The notes under the pieces: model-generated
Databases searched by the model: none
Told to the model about the DNA's origin: nothing
The model's input: only the letters and a program-made list of their open reading frames with translations
Translations under genes and position numbers: made by a program
Source: a virus
Virus record (IMG/VR): IMGVR_UViG_3300045988_164290
Span: 1-48,543 of that record
DNA: 48,543 nt
Direction: 5' to 3' (one strand)
In this document: in pieces, positions 2,271 to 48,543 of the stretch
Layout: every line of letters starts with the position of its first letter
How positions within the stretch are numbered: the first letter of the stretch is position 1

Positions 2271-2862
2271 TGTTTCCACTCCTTATTTCATTTATTGTTG
2301 TCTGAATTTTTGTTTCAATTTCGGCTTGATTTTTACCTAATAATTGCCCAAATATTGCCATTAAACAAGTTGTTACTATGCTATCGCCAAAGCAATGATA
2401 TTGTGCCGAACGGCTTAAATTCTTGCCGATTTTGTATATGTCGTCGTCTTTAACGCCCATAAGCCTGCCACATTCTTTTTCGGTCAATTTGCGTACTCTG
2501 TATTCTCGCAAATTCGGCTCTACGATGCGGTTATTATGTTTTGGAGAACTGCCGTCGGTTGTCAGACAACCGATTGTTTCGTGCCTTATGCAAGAGTTCT
2601 GCTCGTCCAAAGCAAAAGGTTCTTTAAAAACTGTTTCTTCCATAATTTTAGGTTCTGTATTACCCCCCCCACACGTTGTCACCGTCGGCGCGCAACCGTC
2701 CGTGTCGTAAACCCTGCGCGTACAATCCATTGTTTTCTCGAATTTTCCACCGAGCCGACCTGCTATTTTACAATTCATTTTTTCTCCTATTACAACGTGC
2801 CAACACGCAATGTGTGCATCTATCGTCGGGCATATATCCAGCAGAGGTTCTACCCCCCCCAC
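2239..2862 (-). CDS. C-terminal segment of the split C5 DNA methyltransferase (TRD-like modules plus motifs IX-X)
   Basis: RRVYDTDGCAPTVTTCGGGNTEP, RKLTEKECGRLMGV and FGDSIVTTCLMAIF match the C-terminal half of C5-MTases. The frame is -1 relative to 2850..5048 and joins it at a G8 tract. Confidence 0.65.
   Translation of the reverse strand: MGGVEPLLDICPTIDAHIACWHVVIGEKMNCKIAGRLGGKFEKTMDCTRRVYDTDGCAPTVTTCGGGNTEPKIMEETVFKEPFALDEQNSCIRHETIGCLTTDGSSPKHNNRIVEPNLREYRVRKLTEKECGRLMGVKDDDIYKIGKNLSRSAQYHCFGDSIVTTCLMAIFGQLLGKNQAEIETKIQTTINEIRSGNNGKQQKTNTK
2663..2670 (-). repeat. homopolymer tract G8 (C8 on plus) inside the MTase 3' segment
   Basis: tacccccccca read directly; encodes CGGGN. Confidence 0.95.
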
Positions 2863-5048
2863 GGAAGTACCCGTGTCCTAATCGAACAATTACCTTTTCG
2901 TCCATAATTCAACTCCATTTTTGCCATTACAGTCAATCGTTCGGCACAATCCTTGCATCCCCCCCCCCTTTCAAAAGATGGTGATTTACCAAGCAACAAG
3001 CCATTTGCCTCATCAATGATAAAGTTGTCGCACGGACGAGTTCCGTTTTTCGTGAGGAGTGAGTTCGCTATACCGCTCCCATTAGTCGGCTCAAATTTAA
3101 AGCCGTTTCCACGCTCTGCATTTATTGTATTTCGATTAAAGTATGTTTCCAAAAGTTTCTCGCTTATATAATAATTTTGGGCAACATTGTTTTCAAGCAA
3201 ATCTTTTAGTTTTAAATTGCACCCAAGCGGTTTTGGGAACTCAAAATAATGATTGCCCAATACGCTTACCATAAAACACCTTTCACGATTTTGGGGTATT
3301 CCGAAGTTTGTAGCATTTATTACTTGCCATTTTGAGTGATAACCGATTTTATCTAAAAATGATACCCATTCAGCAAACGCTTTAATATTCTTATTCCCTA
3401 TTACTTGTTTAACGTTTTCCATTAAAAGAATTTGAGGTAATTCTGGGATTTCCTTCAAAAGCCTTTCAACTTCCCACAACAACCCACTTCTTGTTCCACT
3501 TCCCCTTTCCATTCCTTTACCAAGTCCCGCCGCAGATAAGTCCTGACAATTATGCACTATCGTGTTTTGCACTGTAAATGAGTGATTATTTTCAACTTCT
3601 ATATCGTATACATTCGATTGCCCACATTCGGTCACGCTTTTGATAGGAAACCAAATAAAACCATTTTCATAAAACGCTTTATCTTGCTTGCATACCTTTT
3701 CTTTCCAAATCAACTCGTATGTGTCGTGTTGATTTACAGTTCTACCCTCAATAACGCAAGTTTTCGCTCTCTTTGTATGATAAATTCTATACGGCATTCT
3801 ATATACTTTTGCAACACATTGACCAAGCCCATATATAAGTCCTCTGCTTATACTTGTTGCCTTATTATATCCCTTTATCACGCACCCGTCAGCACTCATA
3901 TAGCCGTTTAAAAACGAACGCAAAAGGTCTCTCGGCAAGTCCAATATAGTGTTTGTTAAATGCTTGTTTATCGCACCTTTCCCAAATTGTTCAACGAACT
4001 GCGAAAATTCTTTTTGCGGAATATGTATTTTATATATCGTCCGTTCTTTCACAATATTATATTTAAACAATTTATCGAGTTTTTTAACAAGGGTATCTAA
4101 CTTCTTAAAAGAACAGCAAATAACGATGCCGCCTTGTTTTCTTGTCCAGCCGTCTCCAATATATCGCCCTATTACATACCAAAAATCAGCATATTCCATA
4201 AGACCAGCCAATTCGTTTTTGTGACGTGCTTTTCTTCCGTCAGACCAATTATAAGTAATTCCATCCCACGAGGGAATTATTGCTTTTTGATTTATTGCGA
4301 CGCCCAAATAATCACTTTTTGTAAGTTGCACCGCCTCTTTCCAATATGGGTCTGAAAAAGTCCGACGAGAAAAATGTCCTACTCTACTCATAGTTCTTAC
4401 AAAAAACTTGTGATTTGTAGTGCATTTTATTTCGTCTATTGCCATAGCGTTAATTTTTAAAATGGGTTTAATACCATTGTTAAAAGTTTTCACGACTTTT
4501 TGATATGTATTATCGTGAGTAATAACCATCTCCCCAGCCTGAATTTTATCTATTGTTTTATAGCCACTATTCGTTAAGACAAGACTATCTGCCGTAAAAC
4601 AGGGGAATGAGTACGTCATAATATAGTTATATTTGTCGGTGTCTTTCACCTCTAAGTCTTCGCCTTTTATATTGCAAATTGAAACAAGGTTGTGCGAGGC
4701 TTGAATATTGTTGTAAATTGTCCGCAGTTTTTTCTCACCGTATCTATTCAACTGCTCTTTTGTGAGCGGCTGATTATAATCTGCACTGACGCCCATTTTA
4801 AAGAGAGTTTCAACAAGTTCGGGTTTGCCAAGTTCCTTTGAATAATCGTTATTATCTTCGGCAAAATGCAAATCTTTTAACGCCTGTATAGACGGTATCG
4901 CCCATTCGCAAGTTTTATAATGCTCAAACGGAACGCCCAAATATTTTAACGCTAATGCTTGACTGTCGTAACCGCTAAACAACGAAATAAGTCGTATAGG
5001 TTTTTCAATTTTAAACGGCTTTTCGCCGTCAAACATACTAATCTGCAT
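2850..5048 (-). CDS. DNA (cytosine-5) methyltransferase, N-terminal part, interrupted by an in-frame intein
   Basis: Motif I-like LISLFSGYDS. Motif IV is split as TYSFP|C...HN|CQDLSAAG. LLMENV is motif VI and GIPQNRERCFMVS is motif VIII. Confidence 0.85.
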   Translation of the reverse strand: MQISMFDGEKPFKIEKPIRLISLFSGYDSQALALKYLGVPFEHYKTCEWAIPSIQALKDLHFAEDNNDYSKELGKPELVETLFKMGVSADYNQPLTKEQLNRYGEKKLRTIYNNIQASHNLVSICNIKGEDLEVKDTDKYNYIMTYSFPCFTADSLVLTNSGYKTIDKIQAGEMVITHDNTYQKVVKTFNNGIKPILKINAMAIDEIKCTTNHKFFVRTMSRVGHFSRRTFSDPYWKEAVQLTKSDYLGVAINQKAIIPSWDGITYNWSDGRKARHKNELAGLMEYADFWYVIGRYIGDGWTRKQGGIVICCSFKKLDTLVKKLDKLFKYNIVKERTIYKIHIPQKEFSQFVEQFGKGAINKHLTNTILDLPRDLLRSFLNGYMSADGCVIKGYNKATSISRGLIYGLGQCVAKVYRMPYRIYHTKRAKTCVIEGRTVNQHDTYELIWKEKVCKQDKAFYENGFIWFPIKSVTECGQSNVYDIEVENNHSFTVQNTIVHNCQDLSAAGLGKGMERGSGTRSGLLWEVERLLKEIPELPQILLMENVKQVIGNKNIKAFAEWVSFLDKIGYHSKWQVINATNFGIPQNRERCFMVSVLGNHYFEFPKPLGCNLKLKDLLENNVAQNYYISEKLLETYFNRNTINAERGNGFKFEPTNGSGIANSLLTKNGTRPCDNFIIDEANGLLLGKSPSFERGGGCKDCAERLTVMAKMELNYGRKGNCSIRTRVLPWGG
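2853..2860 (-). repeat. homopolymer tract G8 at the junction of the two MTase ORFs
   Basis: CCG TGG GGG GGG TAG ends the 732-aa frame. One extra G, or a -1 slip, continues as ...GGVEPLLDICP. Confidence 0.95.
2959..2968 (-). repeat. homopolymer tract G10 inside the MTase
   Basis: gcatcccccccccctt read directly; encodes ERGGGC. Confidence 0.95.
3549..4601 (-). mobile_element. intein (351 aa) with LAGLIDADG homing-endonuclease domain, inserted in the PCQ catalytic motif
   Basis: CFTADSLVLT is block A and TTNHKFF is block B. WYVIGRYIGDGW and LNGYMSADGC are two LAGLIDADG motifs. NVYDIEVENNHSFTVQNTIVHN is followed by the +1 Cys. Removing the intein gives TYSFPCQDLS. Confidence 0.85.
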
Positions 5049-5313: not shown

Positions 5314-5342
5314 ATTATACTACTTTTGTTTGCCGTTGTCAA
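5314..5342 (-). promoter_or_regulatory. consensus promoter TTGACA-17-TATAAT
   Basis: The reverse complement reads TTGACAacggcaaacaaaagtagTATAAT, giving -35 at 5342..5337 and -10 at 5319..5314. Confidence 0.7.
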
Positions 5343-5869
5343 CCGTTTTTGCGATTATTCGCAAATTTTTTTATTTCGGTGGAAGATTTCAGAACGCAGA
5401 ACGGACGAACCCATAAAGCAAAAACATCATAGCAAGTCTTCACCTTATTTTTGAGGTCATCGACATAACAAACATAAACACTATATTCATATTCAGGACT
5501 TTCACCAGTCAAAGTCCAATACCGTTTGCCAATTTGTGGAATAATTTTGCAATATTTGCGATATTCGTTGATAGATATTAGCGATATTTTATCTACACAT
5601 TTACCATAATCATCACAACCGTCTTGGGTTCGCAAATCTCTTTCGAATTCAACAAGGTCGGATAAGTCTATTTCGGGAAATATGTCGTACATTTCTCGCC
5701 TTAAAGAGCATCCCTCCCAGTTATTTGTCATTTGCCCCCAAACACATATTTGATTAGTGTTATTTATTGCGAAAATTTTAATATTGCCGTTTTCGTCCTT
5801 ATCAAGAACAGTCCACAGCATATTTGCATACAATATGGTATCGCCAATTTTTGCCTCATTTGCTTGCAT
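5339..5869 (-). CDS. undiversified paralog of the DGR target proteins (DUF6273-like fold)
   Basis: GDTILYANMLWTVLDKDENG..., RYWTLTG... and the C-terminal WVRPFCVLKSS parallel the two VR-bearing genes. Only cagaacggacgaac matches the TR. Confidence 0.7.
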   Translation of the reverse strand: MQANEAKIGDTILYANMLWTVLDKDENGNIKIFAINNTNQICVWGQMTNNWEGCSLRREMYDIFPEIDLSDLVEFERDLRTQDGCDDYGKCVDKISLISINEYRKYCKIIPQIGKRYWTLTGESPEYEYSVYVCYVDDLKNKVKTCYDVFALWVRPFCVLKSSTEIKKFANNRKNG

Positions 5870-13882: not shown

Positions 13883-14286
13883 TTCTTCGCTTTATACCTT
13901 TTTAAAAACTTTTCTGCCGTGTCGGCGGCGGTGCTTGCGTTGTGTCTGTACGCCGTCAGAATTTCGCCGCAGACCTTTTCAAAGTCGGTTGCCGTTAAGT
14001 CGGGGCGGCGGGATTTGACCGTATAGGCTATAATCAACTCGGGAAGTTTTACGCCGCAGTCGTAAGCGCGGAATAATTCCGCCGTAAATGGCATTTCGCC
14101 AAGTTCGCAGAATTTCCAACGCCCGCCCCATTTATCGGAAACAACTCCCGCCTGCTCGTCAATTGTCATTTCGTCGAAGCCGCTTTCTTGTTCGTCGCAG
14201 AATTTCGACATCGCAGAAGAAAGATTTTCGGCGTATTGATAATCAAATTCGCCCGTTTCGTCGTCTATTAGTTTAAAAATTTTCAT
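13879..14286 (-). CDS. hypothetical protein (135 aa)
   Basis: ATG at 14286 overlaps the target-gene stop (ATGA). The first 14 track codons are an out-of-frame reading of the VR flank. Confidence 0.55.
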   Translation of the reverse strand: MKIFKLIDDETGEFDYQYAENLSSAMSKFCDEQESGFDEMTIDEQAGVVSDKWGGRWKFCELGEMPFTAELFRAYDCGVKLPELIIAYTVKSRRPDLTATDFEKVCGEILTAYRHNASTAADTAEKFLKRYKAKK

Positions 14287-14924
14287 TTGTCGCCATCGGT
14301 CACATTTGCGGAAGATTTCAAGATGCAAAACGGACGAACGCCGCAGTCGAAGTTACAAAAATTGTAGTACAAAGTACCATTGTAGCCGACGTAACGGACA
14401 AGCTCGCTTTTATAATGGTTTTGACCTGAGTCTGGCGTGGCAGTCCACCACCACGAGCCAACGGGGAAGCGGTCAAGCGTTTTGACAAAACGGCGGTATT
14501 GTTCGCAAGTCAGAAGCCCTATTTTTTGCAGACAGTCGCCGAAATCGTTTAGCCCGTCATCGGCGGTTAGGTCGGTAGTGTGGGCGAGTATTTGCTCAAT
14601 ATCGAAACGTTGCAGAAATTCGCCATTTAACCACGAGCGAAGGCTCGATTTTGCGAAGTTCGGCGATTTATTGTCAAATACTTTTTCGATTATTTCGCCG
14701 TCTTCGTCTTTTAATAATTCTTTCGTGATGACTGCGACCCCGTCGGCGTTTTTGTCTAAAACGACCCAATCAAGCCCGCCGAAGTTCAGGACTTCGCCGA
14801 TCTCGAACTCGTCCGCCCTCTTTGCGTTTAAAAGTTTTATAATTTCGGCGTTGTCGATTTTTACGAAAATTTCGCCGTTTTTGCGTGTAATGTTTTTTTC
14901 GTTTATTGTCAATGTAATTTCCAT
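14283..14924 (-). CDS. DGR target protein 1 (DUF6273-like, C-terminal variable region)
   Basis: FEIGEVLNFGGLDWVVLDKNADG..., WWWTATPDSG...VRYVGYNGTLYYNFCNFDCGVRPFCILKSS; the 3' end matches the TR. Confidence 0.85.
   Translation of the reverse strand: MEITLTINEKNITRKNGEIFVKIDNAEIIKLLNAKRADEFEIGEVLNFGGLDWVVLDKNADGVAVITKELLKDEDGEIIEKVFDNKSPNFAKSSLRSWLNGEFLQRFDIEQILAHTTDLTADDGLNDFGDCLQKIGLLTCEQYRRFVKTLDRFPVGSWWWTATPDSGQNHYKSELVRYVGYNGTLYYNFCNFDCGVRPFCILKSSANVTDGDK
14329..14410 (-). repeat. DGR variable repeat VR-1
   Basis: Ungapped 82-nt match to TR 43836..43917. I count 12 mismatches, and all sit where the TR coding strand has A. Confidence 0.9.
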
Positions 14925-15222: not shown

Positions 15223-15399
15223 CCCTTTTTCTTGTACTTTCGTTCGCTCCCCTTATACTTTCGCCCGCTCTTTATCTCTTTTATTTATATTCTTTTTACG
15301 CCCCCGGGCGTTTTATTATGGAAAGCACAAACAACCGACAAAGGGGGAAGGAGGGGGAAAGGCTAACCCCTTGCCGCCGCCTGAATGGTTGCAAAACAC

Positions 15400-15551
15400 G
15401 AGAAGAGAAAAAAAGAAAAACGAAAAAAAAGAAAAGGAAAAGACGAAAAGCGAAAAGACAAACGAAAAGAAAAGTAATATAAAAGAAAAGATAAAAGAAA
15501 AGATAAAAGAAGAAAAGGGATAAGAAAAAAAAGAAAAAAGAAAAAAAGAGG
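15400..15551 (+). repeat. polypurine tract (~150 nt, >90% A/G on plus) with GAAAAG and AAGAAAAGATAA repeats
   Basis: Read directly. I count roughly 11 pyrimidines in ~152 nt. Confidence 0.9.
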
Positions 15552-34920: not shown

Positions 34921-35304
34921 ATGGGCTTAAAAACGCAAAACTATAAAATTAAACAGTATGATATAACAATTCCGTGGGCTTATGCCATTATAAGGAAAAT
35001 AACAATAGACGGCAATAACGGAACGGCTGAGTTCGCAATTCAGGAAACACGAGAAGCGGCAAAATTTAAAGAGCCGTTTGAAAAAGTTGTTGTAAATTTT
35101 GTCGTAAACCGCAACGAAAGTCCTTATGTAACTGCTTATAACAAAGCAAAGAAAGTCAAGCAAAACACATTTTTCGACACTACAACAAAGAAAATAACTG
35201 TTATCAGCGAAGAAAAAGGCGTTTTGGGCGGCTGGGAAGATGATTTTTGCAATGATGAAATTTTGCAAAATAATTCACAAAAAGACTTGACAAATACTAT
35301 TTAA
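34921..35304 (+). CDS. hypothetical protein, paralog of 34359..34691
   Basis: See the paralog entry above. Confidence 0.5.
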   Translation: MGLKTQNYKIKQYDITIPWAYAIIRKITIDGNNGTAEFAIQETREAAKFKEPFEKVVVNFVVNRNESPYVTAYNKAKKVKQNTFFDTTTKKITVISEEKGVLGGWEDDFCNDEILQNNSQKDLTNTI

Positions 35305-35314
35305 GTGTTATAAT
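35287..35314 (+). promoter_or_regulatory. promoter TTGACA-16-TGtTATAAT
   Basis: TTGACAaatactatttaagTGtTATAAT overlaps the end of the preceding gene. Confidence 0.65.
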
Positions 35315-42782: not shown

Positions 42783-42796
42783 TTTCTTATCTTCCT

Positions 42797-43753
42797 TTAT
42801 AATTTCATTTTTTCAAACGCTTTCCACGAAGAATAACTTTTTTGATAAATTTCAGTTTCGCCGAGTTTTGTTTTTAACCTATTATATTTTTTATTTGCTC
42901 GTCTGCGATTTTCTCCGCATAATACTCTGATAGGTTCACTGTTGTTCGGGTATGTATGAAAACCTAAAAATTTTATTCCGTCGCTAAAATGCATTATTTG
43001 AGTTTTGCCGTTAAGGCTTAATTTTAAATTTAACAGTAATTTTGCGATTTCCGTTAAGCAGTATTTTAGATAATTTTTATCTGCGTGAATTAAATAAAAG
43101 TCGTCCATATATCGCCCATAATATTTGATTTTTAATTTATTGACGATAAAATGGTCTAACTCGTTTAATAGCAAGTTTGCAAATAGTTGGCTCGTTTGAT
43201 TTCCAAGTGCAAGTCCATCACCGTCAACACTATCAATAAACATATCGCATAGTGATAATACCTTGTTATCTGAAAAATAAACCCGCAACTTATCTTTTAA
43301 AACGCAATGGTCTATTGTATAGAAAAATTTTGTTATATCGCACTTTAAAAAGTATCCATTACTGCCGTATTCTTCAAAAAAGTCTTTTTCATCTTGCAAT
43401 AATCTATTTAGCCCATATAATGTGCCTTTGCCTTTTCGACCCGCAAAACACCTATCAATAAAATGTTTTTCCATTTTAGGAATAAGCACATTTTCGCATA
43501 GGCTCATTTGCACGATTTTGTCTTTCGGGTGAGCAGATTTTATTAAACGTTTTTTCGGCTCAAAAATTTCAAACTCATTATAAGGGCTAATTGTGTAACT
43601 GCCGTTAATAAGTTGTTTTTGCAAAATATAAAGGCTTTCAAGTGTCATACTTTCTATTTTGCATAATCGAAAACTTTTCCGTTTCCCTCGCTTAGATTTT
43701 TTCCACGCTCGATATAAATTACCAAAGTTTACTATTTGCTCAAATTCAGTCAT
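42797..43753 (-). CDS. DGR reverse transcriptase
   Basis: ATG at 43753 (MTEFEQIVNFGNLYRAWKKSKRGK). Motifs: KKRLIKSAHPKDKIVQ, CDITKFFYTIDH, LALGNQTSQLFAN (the DGR-type SQ motif), YGRYMDDFYLI and GIKFLGF. Confidence 0.9.
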   Translation of the reverse strand: MTEFEQIVNFGNLYRAWKKSKRGKRKSFRLCKIESMTLESLYILQKQLINGSYTISPYNEFEIFEPKKRLIKSAHPKDKIVQMSLCENVLIPKMEKHFIDRCFAGRKGKGTLYGLNRLLQDEKDFFEEYGSNGYFLKCDITKFFYTIDHCVLKDKLRVYFSDNKVLSLCDMFIDSVDGDGLALGNQTSQLFANLLLNELDHFIVNKLKIKYYGRYMDDFYLIHADKNYLKYCLTEIAKLLLNLKLSLNGKTQIMHFSDGIKFLGFHTYPNNSEPIRVLCGENRRRANKKYNRLKTKLGETEIYQKSYSSWKAFEKMKL

Positions 43754-43766
43754 AAAGTCAAAAGAA

Positions 43767-43931
43767 AGGTTGCATACTCTTTTGCATAATGCGGACTGAT
43801 TTCGGCTTTTGCCTACTCTTTCTCCCTGTTTCCAGAACGGACGAACGCCGCTGTTGTTGTTACAATAATTGTTGTTCAATGTACCATTGTAGTTGACGTA
43901 ACGGACAAGTTCGTTTTACAGTATGCAACCT
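43767..43931 (-). repeat. 12-bp perfect inverted repeat bracketing the TR and spacer
   Basis: Plus 43767..43778 (aggttgcatact) is the reverse complement of plus 43920..43931 (agtatgcaacct). Confidence 0.85.
43836..43917 (-). repeat. DGR template repeat (TR)
   Basis: Lies between avd and the RT gene. Read in the VR frame it encodes NELVRYVNYNGTLNNNYCNNNSGVRPF, with 9 Asn codons. Confidence 0.9.
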
Positions 43932-43937
43932 GAATTT

Positions 43938-44288
43938 TTATTTATCTTTTGACCGCCAAGCAAGCGTTAAATGCTTAACGTCAGCAATAGACTTCGCCCA
44001 AAATTCGCTGTCGTCTGCTGACATAATTTTACACTCAACGCATAACTCCACATAAAAACTTAACTCGTCGCACAATATTATTGCACGGCTTTGTCTTTTG
44101 TTTCTCTCCGCAATATCCCTCATTTGATTAGCCTCAAACAAGTATTCATAAATCTGCAACGCTTTTGTTTGCATTTTGTCGCAGAGCGTAAATCTATACT
44201 TTTTCGGGAATTTTTTGCAATTTGAGGTTTTTGTGATTGTATAAACTGCTAATTGTTTCGCTTTTACTATTACTGTTAATTCCTGCAT
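43938..44288 (-). CDS. avd: DGR accessory variability determinant
   Basis: ATG at 44288 overlaps the target stop (TAATG). 116 aa, helical; ...NCKKFPKKYRFTLCDKMQTKALQIYEYLFEAN... is typical of Avd. Confidence 0.8.
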   Translation of the reverse strand: MQELTVIVKAKQLAVYTITKTSNCKKFPKKYRFTLCDKMQTKALQIYEYLFEANQMRDIAERNKRQSRAIILCDELSFYVELCVECKIMSADDSEFWAKSIADVKHLTLAWRSKDK

Positions 44289-44926
44289 TATCGCACGACC
44301 TCGCAACAAGATTTCAAGATGCAAAACGGACGAACGCCGCTGATGATGTTACAATAATAGTAGTTCAATGCACCACCGTAGCTGACGCAACGGACAAGCG
44401 TTTCATATCCTCTTGTAGGCGTGGAATATGCAGTAGCAAGCCACCACCATTTTTTAGGGTTGTATTTAAGCATAATGTTCGTGTATTTGCAATATAATTC
44501 GCAAGTTAAAAGACTTACGTTGGCTTTGCATTTTTTATAATCTCTTAAACCGTCGTCTGCGGTTAAATCAACAGTATGCTCGCAAATGTTATTTGCGCCA
44601 ATTAAAGCCGCTAATCTGACGTAATATTCGTCGTTAAGGAATGAATAAATTTCAGACATTGCAAAATTATTCGTATCGCTATCAAACTTGCGGCTATCGG
44701 GAAGTAAATCTTTTTTCAAAACCGCCGTCGTATCGCCGCTTTGTTCAAGAACTATCCACTCTTCGCCGCCGATTTTAAAAGTTTCGCCGACGGGAACGCT
44801 TGCAAGTTTCACCTTCTTGTCAAAAAGGTCTTTCACTCTGTCAACGGGAATTTCAAAAATGATTTTATCGCCATCACGTTTTACCGCTTCGTTATCAGTT
44901 ACCTCAATCGTTATTTTTTTTGCCAT
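44288..44926 (-). CDS. DGR target protein 2 (DUF6273-like, C-terminal variable region)
   Basis: ATG at 44926 after GAGAGGTG. FKIGGEEWIVLEQSGD..., WWWLATAYS...VRCVSYGGALNYYYCNIISGVRPFCILKS. Confidence 0.85.
   Translation of the reverse strand: MAKKITIEVTDNEAVKRDGDKIIFEIPVDRVKDLFDKKVKLASVPVGETFKIGGEEWIVLEQSGDTTAVLKKDLLPDSRKFDSDTNNFAMSEIYSFLNDEYYVRLAALIGANNICEHTVDLTADDGLRDYKKCKANVSLLTCELYCKYTNIMLKYNPKKWWWLATAYSTPTRGYETLVRCVSYGGALNYYYCNIISGVRPFCILKSCCEVVR
44325..44400 (-). repeat. DGR variable repeat VR-2
   Basis: Ungapped match to TR 43836..43911. I count 11 mismatches, all at TR adenines. Confidence 0.9.
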
Positions 44927-44954
44927 TTTTCGCACCTCTCTTTTATTTGTTTTT

Positions 44955-44983
44955 ATTATATATTTTTTATTGACTTTTGTCAA
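44955..44983 (-). promoter_or_regulatory. consensus promoter TTGACA-17-TATAAT in front of the DGR operon
   Basis: The reverse complement reads TTGACAaaagtcaataaaaaataTATAAT. Confidence 0.7.
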
Positions 44984-48014: not shown

Positions 48015-48543
48015 TTTTCTAATTCCTCCAACTTTTTCAGCCATTTTGTTTTTATAACTTTTTCAAGATAGTCAGCATTGTATTTTGGTTTTGACGAAAC
48101 GCAGGAAAACGGTCTGCCGAGTTCTTTCTCTCGAATGATTTCCGTTTCACGCATTTTGTTTATCATAAAGGCGAAATTTTCGGGATAATACTTGTAAAGG
48201 TACGCAAAATTTATAAAACTTGCCATAGGACAATACATACACCCGCAACGCTTTTGCGTTTCATAATAGTGGTTGAATATCGGTTGCGTTTTTGCCCACG
48301 CCCAAACCGTTTCTTCTTCGATTCTTTCTTCGACGAGTGGATAACGTTCGACTTTTTGCAAATCTACACGCTTTGCAAAACGCTTTTCTTCGTCAGCGCA
48401 ATACCCAATATAAAAAACAGTATAATAACCTTGTTTTTCCATAAATTCTTGTAACTGCTTTTTCGCTGTAAGTTTATATTTATCGTTACACCACCGCGCA
48501 ACCCTTGTCGGAAAGCCGTACCTTTCGTAAAGTTCGCTCCACG
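48011..48543 (-). CDS. PAPS reductase-like protein, C-terminal part (same gene as 1..366; 48425..48543 duplicates 1..119)
   Basis: ...YTVFYIGYCADEEKRF...CGCMYCPMAS.... Joined across the junction the gene is 780 nt (259 aa). Confidence 0.75.
   Translation of the reverse strand, partial: WSELYERYGFPTRVARWCNDKYKLTAKKQLQEFMEKQGYYTVFYIGYCADEEKRFAKRVDLQKVERYPLVEERIEEETVWAWAKTQPIFNHYYETQKRCGCMYCPMASFINFAYLYKYYPENFAFMINKMRETEIIREKELGRPFSCVSSKPKYNADYLEKVIKTKWLKKLEELEK
48425..48543. repeat. terminal direct repeat copy 2 (identical to 1..119)
   Basis: 119/119 identical to the window start. Confidence 0.95.

Follow-up and report, generated by a model that had tools for sequence, protein, structure and literature searches.

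A BPP-1-type diversity-generating retroelement with an adjacent and a remote recipient in a tailed-phage genome, and relatives that retain Avd without the reverse transcriptase

The diversity-generating retroelement (DGR) of phage BPP-1 (mtd-avd-TR-brt) is arranged in the order target, avd, template repeat (TR), spacer and reverse transcriptase (RT), and its target, the 381-aa trimeric Mtd, has a lectin-like fold with a variable repeat (VR) at the C-terminal end. Remote or multiple targets are known for DGRs of Legionella and Treponema and from metagenomic surveys; in these systems one TR diversifies several paralogues, which have the 3' end of the VR and the flank after it in common. In gut-phage DGRs the VR-bearing domain of the targets is DUF6273, which is C-lectin-like, and small single-domain DUF6273 targets can share one TR with a second target (PMC10743442, PMC11792537). 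Examples include nd4 and nd12, with their 'tentaclins' and tgt2 (PMC10743442), and the Faecalibacterium phages Lelie, CP11, Roos and Pioen (PMC11792537). Here we describe a DGR in a viral DNA of 48,543 nt, IMG/VR record IMGVR_UViG_3300045988_164290 (positions 1 to 48,543; the whole stretch is called the window below), and its relatives in metagenomic contigs.

We hold with high confidence that the window, a circularly assembled genome of ~48.4 kb from an uncultured tailed gut phage, carries a complete BPP-1-type DGR with two recipients that works as follows. A consensus promoter would drive a single transcript spanning target gene 1 (T1), avd, TR, spacer and RT. Within the TR-plus-spacer RNA, the stretch immediately 5' of TR would pair with the mid-spacer region to form a 12-bp helix. 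RT and Avd would bind this RNA, probably prime on it in cis, and copy TR into cDNA while misincorporating opposite adenines. The cDNA would then replace a homologous VR, either VR1 in the adjacent gene or VR2 in a paralogue (T2) 29.5 kb away. Operating in this manner, the element could give rise to ~10^14 variants of the binding site, none of them truncated by a new stop codon. Its components and their order are as follows, together with a third target paralogue (T3).

44983..44955, minus strand: predicted promoter TTGACA-17-TATAAT, 12/12 consensus match, directly 5' of the target1-avd-TR-RT operon
44926..44288, minus strand: target gene 1 (T1), 212 aa, DUF6273, with VR1 at its C-terminus
44325..44400 (core 44325..44398), minus strand: VR1, 76 nt, ungapped against TR
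44308..44324, minus strand: VR1 3' flank TTGCATCTTGAAATCTT, 17 nt, resembling an initiation of mutagenic homing (IMH) element
44288..43938, minus strand: avd, 116 aa, isoelectric point 9.1, with its start codon and the T1 stop codon overlapping as TAATG
43937..43918, minus strand: linker between avd and TR, 20 nt
43920..43931, minus strand: 5' arm of the long-range RNA helix, AGGTTGCATACT, between the avd stop codon and TR
43917..43836, minus strand: TR, 82 nt, 28 adenines
43835..43754, minus strand: spacer (Sp), 82 nt
43796..43818, minus strand: spacer motif GAGUA-GGC(AAAA)GCC-GAAAUCAG, conserved in phage DGRs
43767..43778, minus strand: 3' arm of the long-range helix, AGTATGCAACCT, within the spacer
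43753 (ATG)..42797 (stop), minus strand: RT, 318 aa, with LALGNQTSQLFAN and YMDD
14924..14283, minus strand: remote target gene 2 (T2), 213 aa, DUF6273
14329..14410, minus strand: VR2, a match to the full 82-nt TR, then a 17-nt flank at 14312..14328
5869..5339, minus strand: third paralogue (T3), 176 aa, not diversified

Set beside BPP-1, the locus shows the same gene order, an RT whose closest solved homologue is that of BPP-1, A-specific differences from TR, an A-free and GC-rich TR 3' end, a long-range helix from the sequence upstream of TR to the spacer (the 'cPRT Stop' duplex of BPP-1), and VRs at the C-terminus of a predicted lectin-like fold. It differs from BPP-1 in having two targets, one of them 29.5 kb distant, and in the nature of these targets, which are ~212-aa single-domain DUF6273 proteins rather than Mtd. 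Its TR is also shorter (82 versus 134 nt), as is its spacer (82 versus ~140 nt), which has no evident RT-binding stem-loop, and no hairpin or cruciform follows its VRs. With nd4, nd12 and the Faecalibacterium phages the locus has in common DUF6273 with the VR at its C-terminal end, one TR for two targets, small single-domain targets that resemble tgt2 or the 'small DGR target' and, at the RNA level, both the long-range helix and the spacer motif. Unlike these gut-phage systems, it has no immunoglobulin (Ig)-repeat 'tentaclin': its two targets are both small and mutually paralogous, the second is remote instead of inside the cassette, and the cassette sits among early genes rather than beside tail or structural genes. 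Multi-target DGRs of the Legionella and Treponema type differ from the window's, which belongs to a small phage genome with recipients ~29.5 kb apart (17.8 kb in the opposite direction round the circle). Systems of this kind, targets of this domain family, the use of one TR for two targets and the RNA helix have all been described before, and our findings leave the current understanding of DGRs unchanged. What the window adds is a compact phage example, with an 82-nt TR, an 82-nt spacer and two small paralogous lectin-like targets, one remote. Its most interesting feature is a natural RT-positive/RT-negative polymorphism combined with a conserved Avd.

Alignment of TR with its recipients provides the most direct evidence for adenine-specific diversification. 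Scanning both strands of the whole window with non-A positions alone scored, we recovered exactly three TR-like copies: TR, VR1 and VR2. VR1 aligned to TR without gaps at an offset of +489. Its 74-nt core (TR 43909..43836 against 44398..44325) held nine mismatches, and extension to 76 nt raised this to 11, with 11/11 at TR adenines. VR2 aligned over 82/82 nt and agreed with TR at each of the 54 non-A positions; its 12 mismatches all fell at A. Tabulating substitutions by TR base at both VRs therefore gave 23/23 at A, comprising 11 changes of A to G, 11 of A to T and one of A to C. Given the composition of TR, the probability that all mismatches fall at A by chance is ~2e-5 (74 nt) or ~3e-6 (76 nt) for VR1 and ~2.5e-6 for VR2. 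TR was the sole copy with A at every variable position. A sequence-only reading of this DNA had proposed a complete target-avd-TR-RT element with RT, Avd, TR and VR1 placed as listed above and an ungapped VR1 whose 11 mismatches all lie at TR adenines; each of these claims stood up to machine alignment. The 82-nt length it gave to TR is borne out through VR2 only, as six nt at the TR 5' end do not align with VR1.

The coding design of TR, also anticipated by that reading, is protective against truncation. TR reads NELVRYVNYNGTLNNNYCNNNSGVRPF and contains nine asparagine codons (AAC/AAT); none of its possible adenine substitutions can yield a stop codon, and we computed a repertoire of ~10^14 peptides. 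The final 16 nt of TR are A-free and GC-rich (GCGGCGTTCGTCCGTT) and are common to TR and both VRs. Beyond this point the copies part: VR1 and VR2 are followed by the identical 17-nt flank TTGCATCTTGAAATCTT, whereas TR continues with CTGGAAACAGGGAGAAA. Such asymmetry is what would be expected of an IMH/IMH*-type arrangement, making the flank a candidate IMH. The flank is identical in nearly all relatives (contig L003 has one T/C difference) and also encodes a conserved CILKS, so protein constraint is inseparable from a DNA-level role. T3, which like T1 matches PHROG 9958 (E 1e-23), differs from TR at 48/82 positions without A specificity and has only a GVRPFC-type 3' end in common with TR and the VRs. 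We therefore do not count T3 as a recipient.

The identity of the RT bears on whether this is a DGR at all. The protein carries LGNQTSQLFAN, which fits [I/L]GxxxSQ, and YMDD. Its best match among PDB sequences was 8ub7, the BPP-1 bRT (E 2.3e-36, 129 bits), whereas group II and retron-type RTs scored in the range 1e-8 to 1e-10, with 3.5e-10 as the strongest (at most 43 bits). It also matched Pfam RVT_1 and PHROG 1423 (E 1.4e-96). By tblastn against phage records, its relatives were DGR RTs of Faecalibacterium, Bacillus, Vibrio and Bordetella phages at no more than 45.5% identity, the closest deposited phage RT being that of nd12 (45.5%), tied with the unannotated fecal record MT837771.1. Alternatively, the RT could be of a different class (retron, group II intron or defence RT), with the likeness of TR and VRs reflecting ordinary paralogy or gene conversion. 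The top NCBIfam match, a group II intron RT/maturase model at 95.9 bits, points that way, as do weaker Drt and retron matches; however, NCBIfam holds no DGR-RT model, and all of these matches fall far below their curated cut-offs (96 versus 300 bits for the best). Rfam detected no intron or msr/msd RNA family. Moreover, 23/23 A-only mismatches, TR-VR covariation and variation at A-containing codons are impossible to obtain by ordinary paralogy. We regard this alternative as effectively refuted, with a negligible probability. The RT instead appears to be DGR-type, as the sequence-only reading had judged from its motifs, and is closest to that of BPP-1.

A TTG-started RT open reading frame (ORF) of 360 aa begins inside TR. 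Its 42 extra codons had been taken to be TR read in the VR frame, which is correct for ~15 of them; the other ~27 are the TR-RT spacer. In the ATG-started RT, residue 5 is the first to align with BPP-1 bRT. The 116-aa product of the neighbouring gene, previously described as Avd-like, matched PHROG 3206, 'Avd protein of DGR' (E 2.5e-19).

We looked for relatives by several routes. Megablast of the region found no near DNA relative among 50,697 phage records. TR/VR exact-pattern scans, with N at A positions, gave no match in IMG/VR or JGI metagenome contigs, and profile-based locus searches with the T2 alignment returned no relative in GTDB genomes or IMG/VR and no prophage copy. The gut-phage lineage appears to be new, with no close relative among deposited phage genomes. 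Related metagenomic contigs were found by exact-protein look-ups. Look-ups of this kind for T2 and two of its neighbours gave no match, so VR2 was not paired with a cognate TR in another RT-positive genome.

Two sister phages revealed the direction of information flow. In L005, TR differs from the window TR by a T to A and a T to C change; VR1 differs from its own TR by substitutions that lie at A in 16/16 cases, and it carries the C of that TR. In L013, TR additionally has AC changed to GT; VR1 carries the GT, and its substitutions against its own TR again fall at A in 16/16 cases, alongside a one-codon insertion in the AAC run. At non-A variant sites the VR therefore follows its own TR, demonstrating TR-to-VR information flow. 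Among relatives, VR1 is 66-86% identical and the flanks are mostly 91-100% identical (82-85% in a short upstream overlap with L013). Variation across a broader population followed the same rule. We aligned 24 T2 orthologues (77-100% identity) from different assemblies, many on contigs of 45-49 kb, and found them almost invariant outside the VR. Mean entropy reached 2.30 bits at A-containing TR codons, whereas the non-A codons of the VR and the remainder of the protein each averaged 0.23 bits. The A-restricted variability that the sequence-only reading had suggested seeking is thus seen in a comparison between samples.

The sister phages also differ from the window at the 3' end of the RT gene. 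Both L005 (3536-4699) and L013 (819-1982) have one extra C (GCGTTTG[C]AAAAAATG) near window position ~42813, in an A-run, which fuses the RT in frame with the downstream excisionase-like HTH_17 protein into a 387-aa product. The fused RT-HTH form represents a cluster (95% identity) of 49 members, whereas in the window the two proteins are separate.

Folding of the region between the avd end and the RT start revealed the proposed long-range helix. AGGUUGCAUACU (43931..43920) pairs with AGUAUGCAACCU (43778..43767) over 12 bp, bracketing TR and part of the spacer, with the 5' arm just 5' of TR. Equivalent 12-13-bp helices occur at the same relative positions in L014 (whose RT is 68% identical to the window RT), nd12, FP_Brigit, FP_Toutatis and two fecal phage records. 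In total, 7/8 phage DGR loci have the helix, with quite different arm sequences in each. The helix covaries, with compensatory changes at 10/13 pairs; pairing extends to 98.9% of cells versus ~40% in slid controls, a percentage that is partly built in because the arms were located by complementarity search. Independent support comes from the arms, which occupy fixed positions and, at 12-13 nt, are unlikely to be perfect complements by chance. The spacer motif GAGUA-GGC(loop)GCC-GAAAnCAG, which includes a GGC-AAAA-GCC stem-loop, is shared with eight other phage DGR loci. Cryo-electron microscopy of the BPP-1 RT-Avd-RNA complex showed an avd:Sp 'cPRT Stop' duplex and an Avd-binding stem-loop, and DGR RNA elements were reported to be conserved in 207 DGRs (bioRxiv 10.1101/2023.10.23.563531). 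The window helix corresponds to the 'cPRT Stop' duplex, and the spacer stem-loop motif is plausibly the Avd-binding stem-loop. A minimal spacer that retains the covarying helix helps define the RNA elements required for DGR reverse transcription. For the TR:spacer template-primer duplex and the priming adenosine, RNAduplex gave an ambiguous result in this clade and allowed no assignment; an A-rich CAAAAG just 5' of the helix arm is a candidate for priming by position only.

Both recipients belong to one protein family. T1 matches Pfam DUF6273 at 28.9 bits (cut-off 23.5) and PHROG 9958 at E 2e-36; T2, a paralogue 38% identical to T1, matches DUF6273 at 46.2 bits, above the gathering threshold. 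VR2 lies 29.5 kb away, or 17.8 kb going round the circle in the opposite direction. An AlphaFold2 model of T2 (pLDDT 89.6) had as its top Foldseek match the Thomasclavelia ramosa immunoglobulin A (IgA) peptidase 9qa6 (E 3e-7), whose N-terminal domain is DUF6273. The T1 and T2 VRs are placed at the C-terminal surface of the DUF6273 domain, which by analogy with gut-phage targets is probably C-type-lectin-like.

Several observations weigh against the element being a complete counterpart of the BPP-1 DGR that diversifies virion proteins. No stable stem-loop follows the long-range helix in a spacer of only 82 nt. With just 13 nt from the helix to the start of the RT gene, and no stable structure detected over the initial 130 nt of that ORF, the window has no obvious equivalent of the essential RT-binding stem-loop that follows the helix in the BPP-1 spacer (bioRxiv 10.1101/2023.10.23.563531). 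Neither VR1 nor VR2 is followed by a GC-rich hairpin with a GRNA loop (fold z-scores +1.1 and +1.5) or by a stable inverted repeat. A hairpin or cruciform with such a loop, 4-34 bp downstream of the VR, is needed for efficient BPP-1 homing but is not universal (PMC3240598). Avd scored below cut-off against both NCBIfam DivGenRetAVD (E 1.7e-10, 41 bits, cut-off 80) and Pfam bAvd (22 bits). Foldseek matches of the T2 model to C-type lectins were weak (probability at most 0.6) and included neither Mtd nor TvpA; for this reason, the C-lectin assignment rests mainly on the literature. Finally, T1, T2 and T3 show no recognisable virion-anchoring domain, and they and the DGR all lie in the minus-strand early/replication block, not among the tail genes, which would be an unusual place for receptor-binding proteins to be encoded.

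Because of this gene position and the missing anchor, a role of T1 and T2 as virion receptor or ligand binders is unproven, and we propose it only provisionally. The targets may instead be early-expressed non-structural binding proteins, for example for host or competitor molecules, acting inside or outside the cell. If so, the DGR would diversify something other than host range. Consistent with this possibility, the structural genes form a separate plus-strand block, the targets are single-domain proteins of ~210 aa without a tail-fibre or Ig anchoring domain or, by eye, an N-terminal hydrophobic stretch, and structurally they come closest to a secreted bacterial IgA peptidase, through its N-terminal DUF6273 domain, rather than to a phage tail protein. 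However, gene position is weak evidence for expression timing, and similar small DUF6273 targets ('tgt2', 'small DGR target') occur in gut-phage cassettes, where they are proposed receptor binders. A weak PHROG match to Hoc-like head decoration proteins also spans the VR end of the target. We judge a non-structural role unlikely and favour binding proteins of the virion as the products being diversified.

We examined how the locus varies among phages with the same Avd. Of 13 contigs with an Avd protein identical to that of the window, ten were inspected. TR and RT follow avd as in the window in two (L002 = L011, and L005). The other eight (L001, L003, L004, L006-L010), representing five avd-allele lineages, are RT-less: their avd stop codon is followed by 13 nt and then by the HTH_17 gene that in the window lies downstream of RT. 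These contigs are without the whole 1.14-kb TR-spacer-RT segment (window 42790..43937) and have the same junction in 8/8 cases. RT-less relatives are carried by samples ERZ28615907, SRR36234800, ERZ27255578 and ERR1135453. An assembly artefact was ruled out, as the same junction sequence occurs in at least six assemblies from different samples. A simple microhomology deletion was ruled out by the retained intergenic sequence, GGAGGCAAAAT versus GGAAGATAAGAAA. This difference in intergenic sequence indicates that the RT-positive and RT-less haplotypes have separate histories.

One RT-less genome (49,350 bp) had no RT, no TR and no T3 in the 37.6 kb inspected, and keeps T1, avd and T2 with A-type diversified VRs. 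RT-less VR1 alleles are identical across sample accessions (L004 = L008, L006 = L007) and show 1-9 non-A differences from known TRs, versus none in three RT-positive lineages. In L003 (2363-3001), T1 has a premature stop at codon 30 and has lost the conserved VR Cys codon via non-A changes, defects that fit decay after RT loss. Together, the shared alleles, the non-A differences and the premature stop suggest that RT-less VRs are frozen. Avd appears to have fared differently. The avd alleles for the identical protein, the five RT-less alleles included, differ at 31 sites, all synonymous, a pattern that suggests continued selection on Avd in a set whose retrieval by exact protein identity biases it towards conservation.

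These relatives raise the possibility that the window's DGR, although intact-looking, is silent now and that its VRs are frozen records of past activity. Silence would fit a lineage in which TR and RT are already gone from close relatives, as in the eight contigs and five avd-allele lineages with an identical Avd, and in which RT-less VR1 alleles can be shared between sample accessions (L004 = L008, L006 = L007) or accompanied, in one case, by a premature T1 stop; the want of a hairpin after the VRs would fit as well. Yet the window RT ORF, catalytic motifs, avd, TR and RNA helix are all intact. Furthermore, TR and the VRs show 0 non-A differences over 158 nt, while the relatives' flanking DNA differs by 3-6% and RT-less VRs carry 1-9 such differences. 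Perfect agreement at non-A positions against diverging flanks argues for homing after the latest TR changes. We consider silence very unlikely and the element probably active at present.

A separate question is why RT-less phages would maintain Avd. Their VRs could be rewritten in trans by co-infecting RT-positive kin, or Avd could have an RT-independent function. The basis for the in-trans reading is that RT-less kin keep an identical Avd, VR-bearing targets and the same VR 3' flank. If either were true, the DGR would be a shared or cheatable good within the phage population, an idea that we put forward as speculative and quite unlikely. Whatever maintains Avd, RT-positive and RT-negative haplotypes in similar genomes could be used to measure the fitness contribution of a DGR and the rate of VR decay.

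Several further patterns emerged from the relatives. VR lengths vary by 1-3 codons in or beside the AAC-repeat part (VR1 of L013 and of L001/L004/L008; T2 orthologues), and the L013 VR is one codon longer than its own TR. These differences suggest slippage in cDNA synthesis or later TR indels. T2 has a milder second variable patch, DEDGEIIEKVFDNKSP, at residues ~73-87 (window ~14664..14708), which lies outside the VR and is unrelated to TR. In one RT-less relative (L012, 10001-10642), the T2 orthologue (protein P0024) has a T1-like segment just before the VR (KYTDIMLKYNPKKWWWLATAYSTPTRG), which indicates recombination or gene conversion between the target paralogues. L004 and L008 have the same VR and avd, yet their identity drops to 94% immediately upstream. 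Recombination evidently occurs often in this phage group.

The operon promoter at 44983..44955, already picked out in the sequence-only reading, overlaps with its -35 hexamer the stop codon of an upstream N6/N4 methylase gene. The whole window contains three perfect TTGACA-TATAAT sites versus 0.03 expected from shuffles, making a chance origin of the operon promoter unlikely. We predict that it is a sigma-70-type promoter that would be used for the DGR operon. The other two perfect sites (TTGACA-N16-18-TATAAT) lie at 5314..5342 (minus strand), overlapping the T3 stop codon and facing an intein-containing methylase gene, and at 35287..35314 (plus strand), within the late block.

The window ends in identical 119-nt direct repeats (1-119 = 48425-48543), indicating that the phage genome is 48,424 bp long and was assembled as a circle (or is terminally redundant). 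Late genes occupy the plus strand at ~15.9-40.9 kb and encode a terminase, an SPP1-type portal, the major capsid protein and tail proteins. Early and replication genes, on the minus strand, encode SSB, RecT-like, DnaC-like, replisome organiser and methylase proteins. Rfam and tRNA scans of the sequence gave no match. A C-5 cytosine DNA methyltransferase gene (2850..5048, minus strand) carries an intein inserted in the catalytic PC motif (SFP-C|FTAD...IVHN|C-QDLS), with the Pfam domains Intein_splicing, Hint_2 and LAGLIDADG_3; the corresponding methylase of an RT-less relative is uninterrupted and 367 aa long. Where the early (minus) and late (plus) blocks diverge, a stretch with no convincing genes, immediately 5' of the terminase gene, contains a low-complexity, purine-rich (A/G) tract of ~150 nt (15393-15550). 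In a relative, the neighbouring position is occupied by a gene for a 556-aa LPD29-domain protein.

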